Part shown: positions 18,555 to 29,243 of the stretch, in pieces
Position numbering within the stretch: position 1 is the first letter of the stretch
Layout of the letters: each line of letters begins with the position of its first letter
Virus genome (UHGV): UHGV-0097092
Reading direction: 5' to 3' (one strand)
DNA from: a virus
Length of the DNA stretch: 44,628 nt
Notes under the pieces: model-generated
What the model saw: only the letters and a program-made list of their open reading frames with translations
What the model was told of the DNA's origin: nothing
The model's database searches: none
Translations under genes and position numbers: made by a program

Positions 18555-19535
18555 GTGGCCCAGGAGTTACAACAATATTTTCTACAGTCAGTGCTCATTA
18601 ACGATAACAAAGTGCCACGAGACTGGATTTTTACCGCAGTATATGTAGAAAAAACCAGCCTCAAAGCCCCTTTGCTAAAACTGGAAATTCATGACGCTAC
18701 CGGCACCGTAATTGATGACTGGAAAGCCAAATACGGTGCATCGCTGGTGGCTGAAATGGGCGATCCAAACGGTAATGCAGGCACTTTTAAAACAGATTTC
18801 TTTGTTACGTCTGCAATGCTGGCTGGTGATGTTGTTACCGTTATTGCTGTCAGTGAAGACGTGCGCAGGTTTAAGATCCCCTCCCCGCGCACAAATTTAC
18901 ATACCAACAAAACACCAGACGCTATATTCAAGGCATATTCCGGCAAGCTTAAAATTACCAGCAGCGTGCTAAAACGCGCAGTTACATATCATCTGAATGC
19001 CGGTGACAAACCGTCAAAAATGCTCTCGCAGATAGCGCGAGACAAAGGTGCATTATGTTGGGTATGCCGTGGGGAATTTAACTTTTACACCCTGGCTGAT
19101 CTGATGAAGCAAACGCCATCATTTACCTACGAGGGGAATAACCCTAAAGCAGAATACACTTTGTCCAAAATGCGCCTACTCCAACAGGAACATGCGACAA
19201 CAGCAAAGAATCAATATCGTTTTGTTGGGTATTCCATGACCGATGGCTACGTCGAATATGGCGATAGCTCACTCCCAGTGCGTTATATATCCGACTCTGA
19301 TATGGAAACTCTTCGCAATATGCAGCTGTCTCTCGTCCCCAAAATGGATATAGAAGTCGCAGGCAATCCGGATATAAAACCGGGAATGGTAATAGAGATT
19401 ATCGTATACCGCTATGACCAGGAAAACCGCATTGATGAATCAATGCCCCGCAAGCTGATAGTAAAAAATGTTGCGCACTTTGAAGACCGCGTAGGCTACA
19501 CAACACGAATGATATTAGGAGTGCCGAACAAATGA
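18555..19535 (+). CDS. hypothetical protein (putative baseplate/tail component)
   Basis: 326-aa ORF directly upstream of, and coupled to, the spike gene. Confidence 0.4.
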   Translation: MAQELQQYFLQSVLINDNKVPRDWIFTAVYVEKTSLKAPLLKLEIHDATGTVIDDWKAKYGASLVAEMGDPNGNAGTFKTDFFVTSAMLAGDVVTVIAVSEDVRRFKIPSPRTNLHTNKTPDAIFKAYSGKLKITSSVLKRAVTYHLNAGDKPSKMLSQIARDKGALCWVCRGEFNFYTLADLMKQTPSFTYEGNNPKAEYTLSKMRLLQQEHATTAKNQYRFVGYSMTDGYVEYGDSSLPVRYISDSDMETLRNMQLSLVPKMDIEVAGNPDIKPGMVIEIIVYRYDQENRIDESMPRKLIVKNVAHFEDRVGYTTRMILGVPNK

Positions 19536-20185
19536 AGCGTAGAGCGCAAATTGTTGGAACTGTGCACCCGGCAGGGCTTATGCGTGCTCAGGTCCGTGTT
19601 TTACCAGACTGGAATGGCGTTCCTGATGACGATCTACCCTGGGCAGAATACCTGTTACCCATAGGTAACGCGTTTGTACCTACAGTAAAAGGCGACCTGG
19701 TATGGGTAGAGTTTCCTTATCTGGATGTTAATGGTCGAATTGATACCAGACGCCCAATGATAGTTGGCGCAGCTCAGGATGCGCCTGGCGGAGTACCAAA
19801 CGTCGCGCCGGAGGCGTCAGGCAATGGTAGCGGCTGGACGCCACCAGAAGTAGACGGAGCGCCTCCCCGCCCGCAATTTTCGGCGACAAAAGATTTCGTG
19901 ATTCACCGCAACAATGTGCTCGAAGTGCGAACGGCTGGCGGTGGATATGAAATAGCGAATACGGCAGCAGGCTCAAGGATTGGAATGAATGAATCAGGGC
20001 AGATATACATCATTGGTCCGGCTGATGTAGTAGTGAATGCGGGAGGGAGTGTTAACGTCAAATCAGCCGATAACATCAGCGTTAATGGCAAAAACATTAC
20101 TGTGACAGCCGACGAAAATATTGATTTCAAGGCTGGAGGCACCTTCCAGGCTATCGCAAGCAACTTTGATTTCAAGAAGGGATAG
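19532..20185 (+). CDS. baseplate central spike (gpV / gp5-like OB fold plus beta-helix)
   Basis: N-terminal GTV...VRVLPDW...LPIGNAFVPTVKGDLVWVEF pattern; C-terminal repeats (VNAGGSVNVKSADNISVNGKNITV). Confidence 0.55.
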   Translation: MKRRAQIVGTVHPAGLMRAQVRVLPDWNGVPDDDLPWAEYLLPIGNAFVPTVKGDLVWVEFPYLDVNGRIDTRRPMIVGAAQDAPGGVPNVAPEASGNGSGWTPPEVDGAPPRPQFSATKDFVIHRNNVLEVRTAGGGYEIANTAAGSRIGMNESGQIYIIGPADVVVNAGGSVNVKSADNISVNGKNITVTADENIDFKAGGTFQAIASNFDFKKG

Positions 20186-22760: not shown

Positions 22761-24422
22761 TTAACCTAACTTCGCCCAGGTATCACGCAGCCCAACGGTG
22801 CGGTTAAATACCGGTTTTTCCGCCGTAGAATGGCGGCTGTCGAGGCAGAAATAACCTTCACGCTCAAACTGGAATGCTTTACCCGCTACCGCTTCTTTCA
22901 GCGACGGTTCAGCAAAGCCTTGTTTGATCACCAGCGATTCCGGGTTAATCACCGACAGGAAATCATCCGCAGCACCAGGGTTCGGCACGCTGAACAGACG
23001 GTCGTACAGACGGATTTCAACCGGCAGCGCATGTGCCGCGCTCACCCAGTGAATAACACCTTTGACTTTACGACCATCTGCCGGATCTTTGCTTAAGGTG
23101 TCGGCGTCATAAGTACAGAAGATGGTGGTGATATTGCCTTCGGCATCTTTCTCCACGCGTTCAGCCTTAATGACGTAAGCATTACGCAGACGCACTTCTT
23201 TACCCAGCACCAGACGTTTGTACTGCTTGTTAGCTTCTTCTCGGAAATCGGCGCGGTCGATCCAAATCTCACCGCTAAACGGCACCTGACGGCTACCCAT
23301 TTCCGGTTTGTTTGGATGGTTCGGCATGGTGACCATTTCGCCTTCGCCCTGGTAGTTTTCGATAACCAGTTTCACCGGATCGATAACCGCCATTGCGCGC
23401 GGCGCATTTTCGTTGAGATCTTCACGGATGCAGGATTCCAGCGACGCCATCTCAATGGTGTTGTCCTGCTTGGTCACGCCGATGCGTTTGCAGAACTCAC
23501 GAATAGAAGCCGCAGTGTAACCACGACGACGCAGACCGGAAATGGTCGGCATACGCGGGTCATCCCAGCCTTCAACGTGCTTGTCGGTCACCAGCAGGTT
23601 CAGCTTACGCTTGGACATCACAGTGTATTCCAGATTCAGGCGCGAGAATTCGTACTGGCGCGGGTGAACAGGAATGGTGATGTTGTCCAGCACCCAGTCG
23701 TACAGGCGACGGTTGTCCTGGAACTCAAGCGTACACAGAGAGTGCGTAATACCTTCCAGCGCATCGCTGATGCAGTGGGTGAAGTCGTACATCGGGTAGA
23801 TGCACCACTTGTTGCCAGTCTGGTGGTGTTCAGCAAATTTAATACGGTACAGCACCGGATCGCGCATCACGATAAACGGTGAAGCCATGTCGATTTTCGC
23901 ACGCAGGCAGGCTTTACCTTCTTCAAAACCACCGGCACGCATTTTTTCGAACAGCGCCAGGTTCTCTTCAACGCTGCGGTCGCGGTACGGGCTGTTTTTA
24001 CCCGGTTGCGTCAGGGTGCCGCGGTATTCGCGGATCTGTTCCGGCGTCAGTTCATCAACGTACGCCAGGCCTTTATTGATCAGTTCGATCGCATAGGCGT
24101 GGAGCTGATCAAAATAATCGGAGGAGTAACGGACGTTACCAGACCAGTGAAAACCTAACCACTCTACGTCGTTTTTGATCGACTCAACATACTCGATATC
24201 TTCTTTTACCGGGTTAGTGTCGTCGAAACGCAGGTTGCACTGGCCTTTATAGTCCTGGGCGATCCCGAAGTTCAGGCAGATAGATTTCGCATGGCCAATA
24301 TGCAGATAGCCATTTGGTTCCGGCGGGAAACGGGTATGTACTGTGGTGTGCTTACCACTGGCCAGATCTTCATCGATGATCTGACGAATGAAGTTAGTCG
24401 GGCGGGCTTCTGCCTCACTCAT
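22761..24422 (-). CDS. glnS: glutaminyl-tRNA synthetase, near-identical to E. coli GlnRS as recalled
   Basis: 553 aa; N-terminus [52 protein letters not shown] and VMSKR class I motifs. Confidence 0.95.
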
Positions 24423-24690: not shown

Positions 24691-24978
24691 TTATTTTGCT
24701 TCCTCAGACTCCGCTAACATGAGGATAGCATGGCGGATCATATTCAATTTGCTGCGATTATGCTTTTTGCTTAACGCATCAAGTACCTGGTACTCGTATT
24801 CATTGAAGCCAACACGAATGGATTTAAAATCACGTGGGGCGTCCTTATCGAGCACTTTGTTGTCTTCTGGTTGCTCACCCGGCACCAAATCAGCTTTGCT
24901 GGCAAAAGCCTCAATTCGGCGTTCAAGATCGAGGTCTTTTACTTCGGGGGCTTTTACCGATTTACGAGGCTTAATCAC
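24691..24978 (-). CDS. ParG-like ribbon-helix-helix centromere-binding protein
   Basis: 95 aa; C-terminal RHH-like KSIRVGFNEYEYQVLDALSKKHNRSKLNMIRHAILML; downstream of and overlapping the ParA-like gene. Confidence 0.5.
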   Translation of the reverse strand: MIKPRKSVKAPEVKDLDLERRIEAFASKADLVPGEQPEDNKVLDKDAPRDFKSIRVGFNEYEYQVLDALSKKHNRSKLNMIRHAILMLAESEEAK

Positions 24979-25612
24979 TTAATAACTCCTTAACCAACAT
25001 CTGGATTTCACCTTTAGCTTTCCCGTTGTCCATCTCAACAACGCCCTTCCCTTCAGCCATACAATCGCGGTAAACCTTGCGATCGCGAATGATGGTTTTC
25101 AGCAACTTCAGTTGCGGATATTCAGCCAGGTACTCTTTGGCCTCATTGGCTTCATTCACAACCGGATTGGATGGGGCCATTGTTAAGACTGCGCACGCCT
25201 TAATGCTAGGATTAGGCATCAGATCCAAAGCCTCTTCAAAGACTTCAACAAAATGCGCCAGAGTGTCTAAATCTGGCTGAGATGGCCTGAATGGAACAAG
25301 CAAAACATCCGCCGCAGTAATACCGGTGCGCATTTCTTTGCTATCACGACCAGCGGTATCAACAACCACAAATTCATAACGCTTGTCCAGATCAAGAAGT
25401 GTTTCACGAATATTCCCAAACTTCTGGACGCAATGAATTACTGGAGAAACCTCTGCCGCATTACGGTCCGATGCCCAACGGGCAGATGTTCCTTGCTTAT
25501 CTGCATCAAGTAGAACTACGTCCTTATTTGCGCGGGCAAGCTCCGCACAAATATTTACGCTGGTGGTTGATTTGCCACAGCCACCTTTTTGGCTGGCTAC
25601 CAATATAATCAT
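24971..25612 (-). CDS. parA: small ParA/ParF-type Walker ATPase (type Ib partition)
   Basis: start MIILVASQKGGCGKSTT (deviant Walker A); about 213 aa; GAGG upstream. Confidence 0.8.
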   Translation of the reverse strand: MIILVASQKGGCGKSTTSVNICAELARANKDVVLLDADKQGTSARWASDRNAAEVSPVIHCVQKFGNIRETLLDLDKRYEFVVVDTAGRDSKEMRTGITAADVLLVPFRPSQPDLDTLAHFVEVFEEALDLMPNPSIKACAVLTMAPSNPVVNEANEAKEYLAEYPQLKLLKTIIRDRKVYRDCMAEGKGVVEMDNGKAKGEIQMLVKELLSD

Positions 25613-25645
25613 ATCCGTTCCTCGGTGTGATTTTGGTATCAAAAC

Positions 25646-26251: not shown

Positions 26252-27191
26252 TTAACCGATTGCTTTCAGGCCATGAACAAGAGCAAGTTGCGGGTCATCC
26301 GCCACGAAGAAACGGTCATCACGAATATTAACTTGCTCGCGAATTGCATCTGCCACCAGCGGTGCGCCACCACCGATCACCATGACATGCGTATATCCTT
26401 TAAAGAACGCGGGTACGCAGACGGTCAATGCTTGCGGCAATGGCCTTTTTCACATCACCAACCGCTGATGGGTCATTGATATTGTCGTTCAGATAATCTT
26501 CATCGTGGCGGTTAATAATGAGCTGATCGACATTGTAATTTGACGTTTCGGTATTGGCTCTGGCAAGTGCTTGCCTTACTTCCCTGGTAACCAGAGAGAC
26601 GCCAAGATTCGAATCGCCAAAAACACGGGAAACTGCCGTCATTTGCCCGGCGACCATTGAAACATCAAGGGTAGTTCCACCCAAATCGACGATAAGAACA
26701 GAATGGGCAGGGTTCAGATTGTCGCACAGGCCAATTCCTGCCGGAATAGACTCCGGGCGTACCGTAACTTTCTTAATCGTGAACACATTGCCTTTATTCA
26801 GCGTGACGGGGCGCATAAGGCTGGCTTTCTTGCGCTCGATGTTATCGAGATTGTATTGCGCGTCGTCGTCGTAAAACTCCGCCAGAGGCAGCGTGACCAC
26901 AATTTCTACTTCCTGCGGCTCAATGCCACTTGTCAGCAGGGCATGGTGAACAGCCAGGACGTTAAGCGGGCTGTATTGCCATTCCACGTTATTCGTCGGC
27001 AGAACATCTGGCGAGATCAAATCATACGAATACTTTTCGTCGTCAATGACATAGTTAAACGGCTTGCCCGCACCAAATGTTGCTGACCATCCGCGCTTAA
27101 AGCTGTTAGGGCTGATGTGAGTGCGAGTTTCCCCGTCGTGCTCCCACAGCATTTTGATATTGGTTGAACCATCATCGATAAAAATGCGCAT
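26252..27191 (-). pseudogene. parM: ParM/StbA-like actin-type partition ATPase, interrupted by a frameshift near 26400-26420
   Basis: N-terminal 263 aa (MRIFIDDGSTNIK...DRLRTRVL) stops at 26400; the conserved C-terminus (GYTHVMVIGGGAPLVADAIREQ...) continues in another frame (26252..26440). Confidence 0.6.
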
Positions 27192-27216
27192 CTTCTTGCT
27201 CCACTTCTGAGACACA

Positions 27217-27372
27217 TTTGAGAATCAAAATGCAATTTTAAAAGAGAAGCAACCAAAAATCCACACCAAAAGAGATAAAAAAGAGTGATTATTGAGTTCA
27301 TTTTGAGAATATCTTAATCACCAAATGAATGATGGTCTGACAGTGAGATTTGTTTGAGAATGAATTGAGAAT
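27217..27372. repeat. parC-like array of TTGAGAAT repeats upstream of parM
   Basis: copies at 27217, 27302, 27353 and 27365, plus degenerate copies (27292, 27411). Confidence 0.5.
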
Positions 27373-27457
27373 ACAAAAATATTCCGAAATTTAACTCTCA
27401 GTTTGAATGACGAAATAACAAAGTGATGACAATAGGAGGATAACCAGGAGATGAAGA

Positions 27458-27742
27458 ATGAGCGCAATAGCCACCAGCGACACCCTTTGTTCTGGTCACG
27501 GAGGATTTCCGCCGCGACTGGTAGCTGAAACCGTTCCCTGGTTCACCGTTAACGGTAAGCCAGTTGTTGTAGATGGTGCCATGTTTCCCAGTCACACTGA
27601 CGGTAACAGTGCACATCCAGGGGCAGCTGTATCGACGCGAGTATGGTTTTCGATAGGTGGAAAGGGAGTTGTCTGTGTAGGCGATCCGCTTTCTTGTGGT
27701 TCTGTTATCGCCAACGGCGAGGATATTTTTCAGGTTGCATAA
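27458..27742 (+). CDS. PAAR-like spike-tip protein (T4 gp5.4-like)
   Basis: 94 aa; CSGHGG...NGKPVVVDG...VCVGDPLSCGSVIANG pattern. Confidence 0.6.
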   Translation: MSAIATSDTLCSGHGGFPPRLVAETVPWFTVNGKPVVVDGAMFPSHTDGNSAHPGAAVSTRVWFSIGGKGVVCVGDPLSCGSVIANGEDIFQVA

Positions 27743-28548
27743 TGCTTGATTCAATAGGTGAAGTTAAAGCCTTCAAAATTCTGTCAGATGCCGGTATCTC
27801 TACACCAGAATCTATAACCATAAGCCGGGCAGCTTCTGTAAAAGCCTCATCGCTCGCCAGCGCCATACAGGGAATAGTTCACGCCGATAAAACCTATCCT
27901 GATTCTGTTTCGGCCTGGACTACTCAATTGCTTGGCTTTTCTGAACAGCTCAATGAGGCCAGCAAAGCGTCTTCATCACTGGCTGATTCTCTTTCCCCAT
28001 ACACCAAGCCATCAGAGCTGTTACAGATGAAGATTGGCTGGGAATGCTACGCAAAAGGTAACGAGCTGACCCCCATACCTGCTTTCGCCCTTGTTGAGGG
28101 AATGGGGAATGTTTCCATTCCGCAATCTCTAACGGACGCATTGACGGCGCTAAAACTTGATGCTCTGAAAACCGCCATGAACGCCATTAACGCAAAAATT
28201 GAAGCTGCCGGAAGTGCTGGTGGTGGTGAAAGCAATGGTGGACAGGGTGGTGCTGGGGGCGCTCAGGCTCCAGTCATTACTCAGGATGAAATTGATGCTT
28301 TACGGGAAGCAGTGACAGCCGCCGAAGTTTTACTCTCCGAAATTAACTCAGCAAGTGAGGGTGTCGTAGCCCTTACAGGTCGCATTAAAACGTCAACCAC
28401 TCAGGCAACCAAAGGTTTAGAGAACGCTGTCGCCATCACGTTAACTGGTTCTCTACTGGATGATGCAGTAATGAGTCCGGCAATCAGTTTAATCATGCCA
28501 CAAGGCGTTATCGATGCGCTCCAAAAGAACACCAAAAAGGAACCATAG
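27742..28548 (+). CDS. hypothetical protein with Gly-rich linker, translationally coupled to the PAAR-like gene
   Basis: 268 aa starting MLDSIGEV; TAATG overlap; central GSAGGGESNGGQGGAGGAQ linker. Confidence 0.45.
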   Translation: MLDSIGEVKAFKILSDAGISTPESITISRAASVKASSLASAIQGIVHADKTYPDSVSAWTTQLLGFSEQLNEASKASSSLADSLSPYTKPSELLQMKIGWECYAKGNELTPIPAFALVEGMGNVSIPQSLTDALTALKLDALKTAMNAINAKIEAAGSAGGGESNGGQGGAGGAQAPVITQDEIDALREAVTAAEVLLSEINSASEGVVALTGRIKTSTTQATKGLENAVAITLTGSLLDDAVMSPAISLIMPQGVIDALQKNTKKEP

Positions 28549-28618
28549 AAACACCACTTAGGCACACAAAAGGATGTAAATTGGTACATGTTTAACACCA
28601 AAAATGAACCTGGAGAGG

Positions 28619-29077
28619 ATGGTTTTGAAAAAGATAATTTTGATTGTAATTGCGCTTTTAGCCATTTCTGGAATTTACCGAACAACGACGGCAGTTATCG
28701 AACACATCAGGTATGTCCGATCGCTTGAAGACTCAAAATCACAACTGGAAAGCACGAACAACACGCTTTCTACCGCATTACAGTTAAGTGAGAACGCTCG
28801 CTCAGCCATGCTGACCGAAAACGAAAGAATTAAAGCACTGGAAAAGGAGTACCAGCGCAAAACAGCAGAACTGAATGCCAACCTAATCAAACAACGAGAG
28901 GAAAGCCAGAATGAAATCACTCGCCTTGAAAATGCGTTGCGCCGTGCTGGGATTAACGATGTGCGTGTGCCTGATGACGTTATCAGGATGCAGCGGGAAC
29001 GGGCAAAAGCCATCAACCAGCGTGCCAGTGAAAATTACCGTAGAAGCCACCAGCAAGCCGCAGGCAAATCTGATTGA
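28619..29077 (+). CDS. Rz-like inner-membrane spanin (i-spanin)
   Basis: N-terminal TM helix (ILIVIALLAISGIY) followed by a long coiled-coil periplasmic region; GGAGAGG upstream of ATG 28619. Confidence 0.6.
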   Translation: MVLKKIILIVIALLAISGIYRTTTAVIEHIRYVRSLEDSKSQLESTNNTLSTALQLSENARSAMLTENERIKALEKEYQRKTAELNANLIKQREESQNEITRLENALRRAGINDVRVPDDVIRMQRERAKAINQRASENYRRSHQQAAGKSD

Positions 29078-29243
29078 TTACTCCCCTTGTTTAGTGCCAG
29101 AGGACACGCCAGTGCTGTTAAACAAGTATCCGACATACGCTGAACAGTTATTCAGCACGATCGACGAATGCAACCAACGAAACGCACTGAATAACCAAAG
29201 AAACAGGGAGATTTGGGAAGGGAAGGGGGATCAAGGCTCCTGA
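28911..29243 (+). CDS. Rz1-like outer-membrane lipoprotein spanin (o-spanin), overlapping the Rz-like gene in another frame
   Basis: signal peptide with lipobox LSGC, Pro-rich mature part; overlapped architecture; true start may be the internal Met at 28932. Confidence 0.5.
   Translation: MKSLALKMRCAVLGLTMCVCLMTLSGCSGNGQKPSTSVPVKITVEATSKPQANLIDYSPCLVPEDTPVLLNKYPTYAEQLFSTIDECNQRNALNNQRNREIWEGKGDQGS

Follow-up and report, generated by a model that had tools for sequence, protein, structure and literature searches.

What does a gene that shares one base with the gene of a PAAR-like tail tip contribute to the virus that carries it? The locus lies at positions 27,458 to 28,548 of a 44,628-nucleotide viral sequence, UHGV-0097092, the whole of which is called the window here. 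An earlier note on this DNA had read the first of the two genes as a PAAR-like tip protein encoded far from its spike gene, and the second, for a protein of 268 residues, as a possible spike-associated payload, by analogy with PAAR proteins that are paired with cargo or effector domains. We consider it quite probable that the two genes encode a spike tip (UpfC) and a tripod-forming protein (UpfB), which would be produced late and by coupled translation.

The element and the two proteins

The 4.5 kb around the pair were found to be 96.0% identical to Escherichia phage D6. Furthermore, ~100 non-mobilisable plasmids of ~90 kb from E. coli, Salmonella and Shigella matched this 4.5-kb region at 95–99.6% identity, the best match being an E. 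coli plasmid (99.6%). These identities mark the window, at the nucleotide level, as a D6-like phage-plasmid and a relative of P1. In the D6 record, orf57 is annotated as 'similar to P1 gene upfC' and orf56 as 'similar to P1 gene upfB', and by homology the 94-aa and 268-aa genes of the window are the D6-lineage orthologues of P1 upfC and upfB. Because the pair is annotated under these names in D6 and the P1 pair was structurally placed in 2026, it is an ordinary representative of a system that had already been described. The features of the pair are as follows.

27458..27742, + strand: upfC orthologue, a 94-aa spike tip protein of the PAAR/gp5.4 type (P1 UpfC homology, PHROG 281, Pfam)
27742..28548, + strand: upfB orthologue, a 268-aa all-alpha protein, by homology the counterpart of the P1 'tripod' (P1 UpfB homology, PHROG 1559)
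28204..28269, + strand: Gly/Ser-rich linker of UpfB (residues ~155–176, AAGSAGGGESNGGQGGAGGAQAP)

The 94-aa protein is almost certainly a PAAR tip, as the earlier note had recognized. Its Pfam score is a marginal pass (PF05488, PAAR_motif, 27.2 bits versus a cutoff of 27.0), and the assignment is carried further by matches to PHROG 281 ('PAAR motif', E 8.4e-29), to the P1 UpfC chain (PDB 9vyi_A, E 1.4e-35, 56% identity over the full length) and to T4 gp5.4 (5iv5, E 1.4e-5; 4ku0, E 2.7e-5). The NCBIfam equivalog for T6SS PAAR proteins was not reached (34 bits versus a cutoff of 124). P1 UpfC and a T4-type gp5.4 chain carry the same residues as the window protein at H14, H46, H53 and C80, and these four fit the metal site of PAAR proteins, which reportedly consists of three histidines and one cysteine. 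The dN/dS of upfC against close relatives was ~0.04, as is typical of purifying selection.

The 268-aa protein is more diverged. BLASTP aligned it collinearly with P1 UpfB at 27% identity over 263 positions (E 3e-24), and it matched PHROG 1559 ('unknown function') over positions 1–263 of 263 (E 2.2e-110). The family is small, with 39 clusters among 5.8 billion sequences and 73 representatives among 1.84 billion sequences, and its full-length members are stand-alone proteins of 240–265 aa. A Pfam search with the protein and 26 homologues at E <= 10 returned no family; neither did NCBIfam and PADLOC, and a sequence-profile search of the PDB found no relative. Neither a transmembrane segment nor a signal peptide was seen in the sequence, which is acidic (pI 4.65).

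Structure prediction, which the earlier note had proposed for this protein, was run with AlphaFold2 on 26 sequences and gave a confident model (pLDDT 84.5, pTM 0.76) that consists of helices only, ten in number and up to 58 residues in length, with no enzyme or toxin domain. The 'Gly-rich flexible linker' of the earlier note is also present: residues 160–173 have a pLDDT below 50 and are predicted to be disordered. The linker is of low complexity, rich in indels and variable in length, and it sits at the same position in all homologues, including P1 UpfB. In remote homologues it is Pro-rich, and the architecture of two helical parts joined by a low-complexity linker is kept.

Foldseek comparison of the model with BFVD returned weak matches (E 2e-3 to 5e-2, TM 0.3–0.64). 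A weak likeness over the whole length was found with DUF7217 proteins of Pectobacterium phage Wc4 and Serratia phage vB_SmaA_3M (TM 0.4–0.5), a weaker one with a DUF7217 protein of E. coli phage FEC14 (E 0.49), and one unnamed BFVD protein matched at TM 0.58–0.64. At the sequence level, UpfB and DUF7217 showed no link; the 10 ORFs of the rV5 baseplate region that were scanned included no DUF7217 counterpart, and the UpfB profile had no match in rV5 at 1–50 kb. A relationship of UpfB to DUF7217 was thus not substantiated by these comparisons.

Is the second gene under selection at all? Its pairwise dN/dS against close relatives was 0.15–0.27, which indicates a functional gene under purifying selection and led us to reject diversifying selection on UpfB. 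The low values for both ORFs mark them as real genes rather than chance reading frames. Identity between the D6 type and P1 is 27% for UpfB and 56% for the PAAR tip, and within the D6 clade the values are 59% and 89%. The hub, spike, capsid, sheath and tube proteins are 37–56% identical between the D6 type and P1. Gp24 (22%), Sit (28%) and the spanins are, however, diverged to a similar degree as UpfB, which is therefore not a unique outlier. We attribute the high divergence of UpfB to weaker constraint together with module exchange.

Junction, transcription and gene order

The following features surround the start sites of the two genes.

27446..27450, + strand: AGGAG Shine–Dalgarno (SD) sequence, 7 nt before the upfC ATG, read from the sequence
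27740..27744, + strand: TAATG stop/start overlap with one shared base, the putative translational coupling junction
27413..27433, + strand: candidate late promoter AAATAACAAAG-N5-GACAAT, ~25 nt upstream of the upfC start
13493; 16935 (gene 7); 27413 (upfC); 30188 (major capsid gene); 38817 (pmgB-sit), + strand: copies of the promoter motif, with the operon downstream in brackets

The junction reads ...GTTGCATAATGCTT..., in which the TAA of upfC (27740–27742) and the ATG of upfB (27742–27744) have base 27742 in common, exactly as the earlier note had described. An AGGT SD-like motif lies 5–6 nt upstream of the upfB start, inside the last codons of upfC, with no other SD. The mechanical ORF opens at 27643 and ends at 28548; comparison among relatives places the true start at 27742, not 27643, and gives a product of 268 aa, because M1-L2-D3 is invariant in 26 homologues and the overlap is conserved.

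Could the overlap be accidental? We compared 39 related loci (D6, P1, one Citrobacter genome and 36 partly redundant IMG/VR contigs), in which UpfB identity ranged from 28 to 100%. In all 39, upfB has a PAAR gene directly upstream, and in 37 the genes overlap by one base (TAATG or TGATG). The exceptions are P1, with an 8-nt spacer and an AGGAG of its own, and one locus with a 1-nt spacer. That the overlap has persisted while synonymous sites diverged to saturation speaks for translational coupling under selection, so the earlier proposal that the two genes are translationally coupled is probably correct.

The pattern AAATMACARAS-N5-ANNNT occurs five times in the window versus 0.67 expected, a count reached in 0 of 100 shuffles. 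Each of the five copies lies on the + strand and directly precedes a morphogenetic operon, and in the relatives L025 and L028 the motif stands at an equal distance before upfC. We propose this pattern as a candidate late promoter of the D6 lineage. It differs from the Lpa inverted repeat AAAGTCA-N5-TGACTTT that precedes P1 gene 23, and no P1-type Lpa box was seen when the 120 nt preceding upfC and those preceding the capsid gene were inspected. When the upfC upstream region was compared with the whole window by 12-mers, the noise was too great for direct use.

Why, then, is the tip gene not beside the spike gene? The hub and spike genes and the genes that follow upfB are listed here.

18555..19535, + strand: gene 6 orthologue, baseplate hub (37% identical to P1 gp6, PHROG 1390, D6 annotation)
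19532..20185, + strand: gene 5 orthologue, trimeric central spike that the PAAR tip would cap (PDB 9vzk_q, PHROG 430)
28604..29077, + strand: Rz-like i-spanin with an N-terminal transmembrane segment and a coiled coil (PHROG 214 and 89, 'Rz-like spanin')
28911..29243, + strand: Rz1-like o-spanin lipoprotein with the lipobox LSGC (PHROG 456 and 30284, 'Rz-like spanin')

The spike gene matched 'Gp5' of P1 (9vzk_q, E 5.4e-54; 46% identity) and PHROG 430 (E 7.5e-42), with a further weak match to the VgrG-type DUF2345. The PAAR gene lies 7.3 kb downstream of it, in agreement with the ~7 kb given earlier, and it does adjoin a partition locus: the parM ORF (26400–27215, minus strand) is divergent and lies 243 bp upstream of upfC.

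The partition locus has features of its own. Relative to phage D6, parM/stbA (26252–27215, minus strand) carries a 17-bp deletion near 26402. In place of the 318-aa gene, the deletion leaves a 271-aa ORF and, in another frame, a 62-aa ORF for the C-terminal part, and the type II partition ATPase may be inactive in this element. A second partition system, of the ParA type, lies at 24691–25642. The parM–upfC intergenic region (27208–27377) contains four copies of TTGAGAAT (27218, 27303, 27354 and 27365), partly spaced by 11 bp and accompanied by TGAGA half-sites, just upstream of the predicted upfC promoter; in appearance, these repeats resemble ParR (StbB) iterons of a parC-type centromere/operator. 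Between the spike gene and the partition genes, the accessory block also includes a 553-aa ORF (22761–24422, minus strand), which corresponds to a D6 gene annotated as glutaminyl-tRNA synthetase (GlnRS), an unusual cargo for a phage-plasmid.

Five remote UpfB-like genes could be placed in context (profile E 7e-15 to 1e-4; L043 and L044 were also checked by tblastn). A PAAR gene lies 0–3.3 kb upstream on the same strand in all five loci, and hub and spike genes precede it in four. L044 has an uninterrupted hub-spike-PAAR-UpfB order; in L048, three genes including a methylase separate the spike from PAAR, and UpfB is followed by capsid and sheath genes. In L043 and L045, the order is hub-spike-PAAR, then lysis genes or small genes, then UpfB and capsid; in L046, PAAR is preceded by a toxin-antitoxin pair and separated from UpfB by an amidase cassette. 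From this order, the ancestral backbone is reconstructed as hub-spike-PAAR-UpfB-capsid-sheath, interrupted at three insertion hot spots. The spike–PAAR hot spot of the window is occupied by hrdC, two methylases, GlnRS, a ParA-like gene and ParMR, and the third by Rz/Rz1 and two minus-strand genes. The 7.3-kb gap and the position next to the partition locus are thus explained by the insertion of accessory and plasmid-maintenance genes between gene 5 and upfC. The large distance pointed out in the earlier note is real, but it would reflect accessory insertion, as hub, spike, tip and UpfB genes are (nearly) contiguous in remote relatives.

A different reading places UpfB functionally in the lysis cassette, perhaps as a regulator of lysis, since it would be co-transcribed with the spanins. 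In the D6-like elements, as in P1, Rz and Rz1 directly follow upfB, with Rz1 overlapping the end of Rz in another frame (the Rz transmembrane segment comprises residues 6–24, Kyte–Doolittle 2.48), and lysis genes also lie between PAAR and the UpfB-like gene in three remote relatives.

L043, 2461–3820; L045, 2530–5001; L046, 70–1463 and 1977–4813: lysis genes of the PAAR–UpfB interval and, in L046, also genes before PAAR

The genes observed in these intervals are a GH19/PG_binding endolysin, Phage_lysozyme, LysC and Amidase_3, and in L046 a RES-Xre toxin-antitoxin pair and AlpA stand just before PAAR. Adjacency of tip and UpfB genes is therefore not universal, and this part of the late region is a hot spot of insertion. 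On the other hand, L044 and L048 keep the UpfB–PAAR linkage with no lysis genes nearby, and the backbone order makes the lysis genes look like insertions, which argues against a lysis role. UpfB also has no membrane or export signal, and P1 delta-upfB would belong to the 24 knockouts, out of 29, that plaque normally, judging from the five essential genes listed in PMC9024508. We regard membership in the lysis cassette as extremely unlikely.

Across 27458–29243, synonymous divergence from the relatives L017–L022 shifts abruptly between upfC-upfB and Rz. In L017, dS was 0.35 for upfC, 0.25 for upfB and 0.02 for Rz; in L019, it was 1.3 for upfC, saturated for upfB and 0.27 for Rz. Since upfC and upfB share a dS level that differs from that of Rz, the two are exchanged as one recombination module, which indicates mosaic exchange of the putative tip-tripod module among D6-like plasmids.

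A probable place for UpfB at the tip of the tail

Where in the infection cycle would the UpfB protein act? In the 2026 cryo-EM study of P1, UpfC was built as a monomeric tip on the trimeric gp5 spike, like T4 gp5.4, and UpfB was assigned to a 'tripod', a feature called novel there, of three trimers anchored on the spike tip (PMC12810830). The tripod assignment was made by fitting an AlphaFold3 trimer to medium-resolution density, with no built model or mass spectrometry (PMC12810830). By homology, it is likely that UpfB of the window is a tip-bound virion protein. Orthology, linkage, purifying selection and the predicted fold were computed here, and the virion location and stoichiometry are taken from the P1 literature.

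We picture the sequence of events as follows. Late transcription from ~27440 would give upfC, upfB, Rz and Rz1 on one message, and ribosomes that end upfC would restart on upfB through the one-base overlap. A single UpfC cone would cap the beta-helical end of the gp5 trimer, as in the homologous P1 and T4 structures solved by cryo-EM or crystallography, and UpfB, an elongated protein, would form trimers, three of which per tip would make up the tripod, as in the indirectly assigned P1 feature. Upon sheath contraction, the UpfC–UpfB complex would be driven into the host envelope ahead of the rest of the virion. Points against this reading are the indirect tripod assignment in P1, the identity of only 27% to P1 UpfB, the lysis genes that separate PAAR from the UpfB-like gene in three remote relatives, and the normal plating of P1 knockouts and knockdowns of both genes. 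In P1, an HHpred comparison linked UpfC to T4 gp5.4, delta-upfC plated normally and an in-frame delta-upfB was made (Gonzales et al. 2022; PMC9024508); furthermore, upfC and upfB both scored as non-essential by CRISPRi (PMC10695390).

Could UpfB instead be a cytoplasmic assembly factor or chaperone that folds or loads the PAAR tip and is left behind? Tight coupling to the PAAR gene would be equally expected of such a factor, the assignment of the P1 tripod density is indirect, and UpfB is absent from the LC-MS/MS list of P1 virion proteins (PMC9024508). The same list, however, also lacks UpfC, gp5, PmgA and gp26, which were all built later into the cryo-EM map and include proven low-copy baseplate proteins. 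A chaperone would, moreover, leave unexplained the extra density at the P1 tip, which a predicted UpfB trimer fits. The helices of up to 58 residues and the flexible linker would set UpfB apart from the small chaperones known for PAAR proteins. A chaperone role is thus an unlikely one.

Is UpfB a payload in the sense of the T6SS, that is, a toxin or membrane-active effector borne by the PAAR protein and delivered into the host by the spike? No toxin or enzyme domain was recognizable in or after the PAAR protein, and the family searches in Pfam, NCBIfam, PADLOC and the PDB were all empty. No cognate immunity gene lies immediately downstream, where the Rz/Rz1 spanins are found, and no phenotype is associated with the gene. 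We consider such a payload very improbable. The earlier 'spike-associated payload' is thus divided: association with the spike is supported by homology to P1 UpfB (PMC12810830), and the effector part found no support, as the protein has neither a toxin family nor an export signal and its P1 counterpart is described as a structural tripod.

Under the preferred reading, a tip tripod, the complex would not be required on laboratory hosts and may be important for particular envelopes. The analogy is with T4 gp5.4, described in PMC12407873 as needed for fitness and for infecting mutants with deep-rough LPS. The role of UpfB in envelope penetration would accordingly be conditional rather than essential. 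A more specific proposal, which we advance as speculative and rather doubtful, is that the tripod, rather than being a passive ornament, enters the periplasm together with the PAAR tip as a module for envelope penetration or host range that is required only under some conditions. If so, the tripod would be a structural analogue of PAAR-borne cargo, the faster divergence of UpfB would reflect adaptation to different host envelopes, and the module would matter only on hosts with altered LPS, as for T4 gp5.4.

Significance and comparison with known systems

What is new here is the adjacency in 39 of 39 loci and the overlap in 37, the purifying selection, the shared candidate late-promoter motif and the insertion origin of the gap. 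The backbone order and the conserved junction provide independent genomic support for the indirect assignment of UpfB in P1. Thousands of 'hypothetical protein' entries beside a 'PAAR domain-containing protein' in D6- and P1-like plasmids of E. coli, Salmonella, Shigella and Klebsiella could then be read as the tripod gene rather than as a toxin. The three hot spots have taken up lysis, methylase, toxin-antitoxin and plasmid-maintenance genes, and such insertion sites would be convenient for engineering phage-plasmids that carry resistance genes.

The closest known system is the UpfC–UpfB pair of P1 (PDB 9vyi/9vzk), which has the same order on the same strand and is followed by Rz/Rz1. In both phages, the pair lies kilobases from gene 5 and adjoins plasmid-maintenance genes. 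The two differ in the junction (an 8-nt spacer with its own SD in P1, a one-base overlap in the D6 type), in the sequence before their late genes (an Lpa repeat in P1, the AAATMACARAS-type motif here) and in the partition neighbour, which is RepA-ParAB in P1 and ParMR/StbAB with a ParA-like gene in the D6 type.

In T4, gp5.4 (4ku0, 5iv5) is, like UpfC, a PAAR-type monomeric cone of ~95 aa on a trimeric beta-helical spike, and it is dispensable for assembly and for plaques under standard conditions (PMC12407873); P1 delta-upfC likewise plates normally. T4-type records annotate 5.4 among the ORFs of the gene 5 region (5.1, segC-gp6 intergenic region). No tripod is described for T4, and T4 gp5 has a lysozyme domain, whereas gp5 of P1 and D6 has none.

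The T6SS VgrG-PAAR-effector assembly resembles the pair in that a PAAR cone sharpens a trimeric spike and the product of the next gene rides, here probably, on the tip. It differs in that the window pair has no toxin domain, immunity gene or adaptor/chaperone family and is found in the context of a phage late operon. The gpV-type spike of P2 functions at the equivalent place, namely the end of a contractile tail that attacks the membrane (PMC12407873). In P2, however, the tip is fused to the spike protein, whereas in the window the spike, the tip and the putative tip-attached protein are encoded by three genes.
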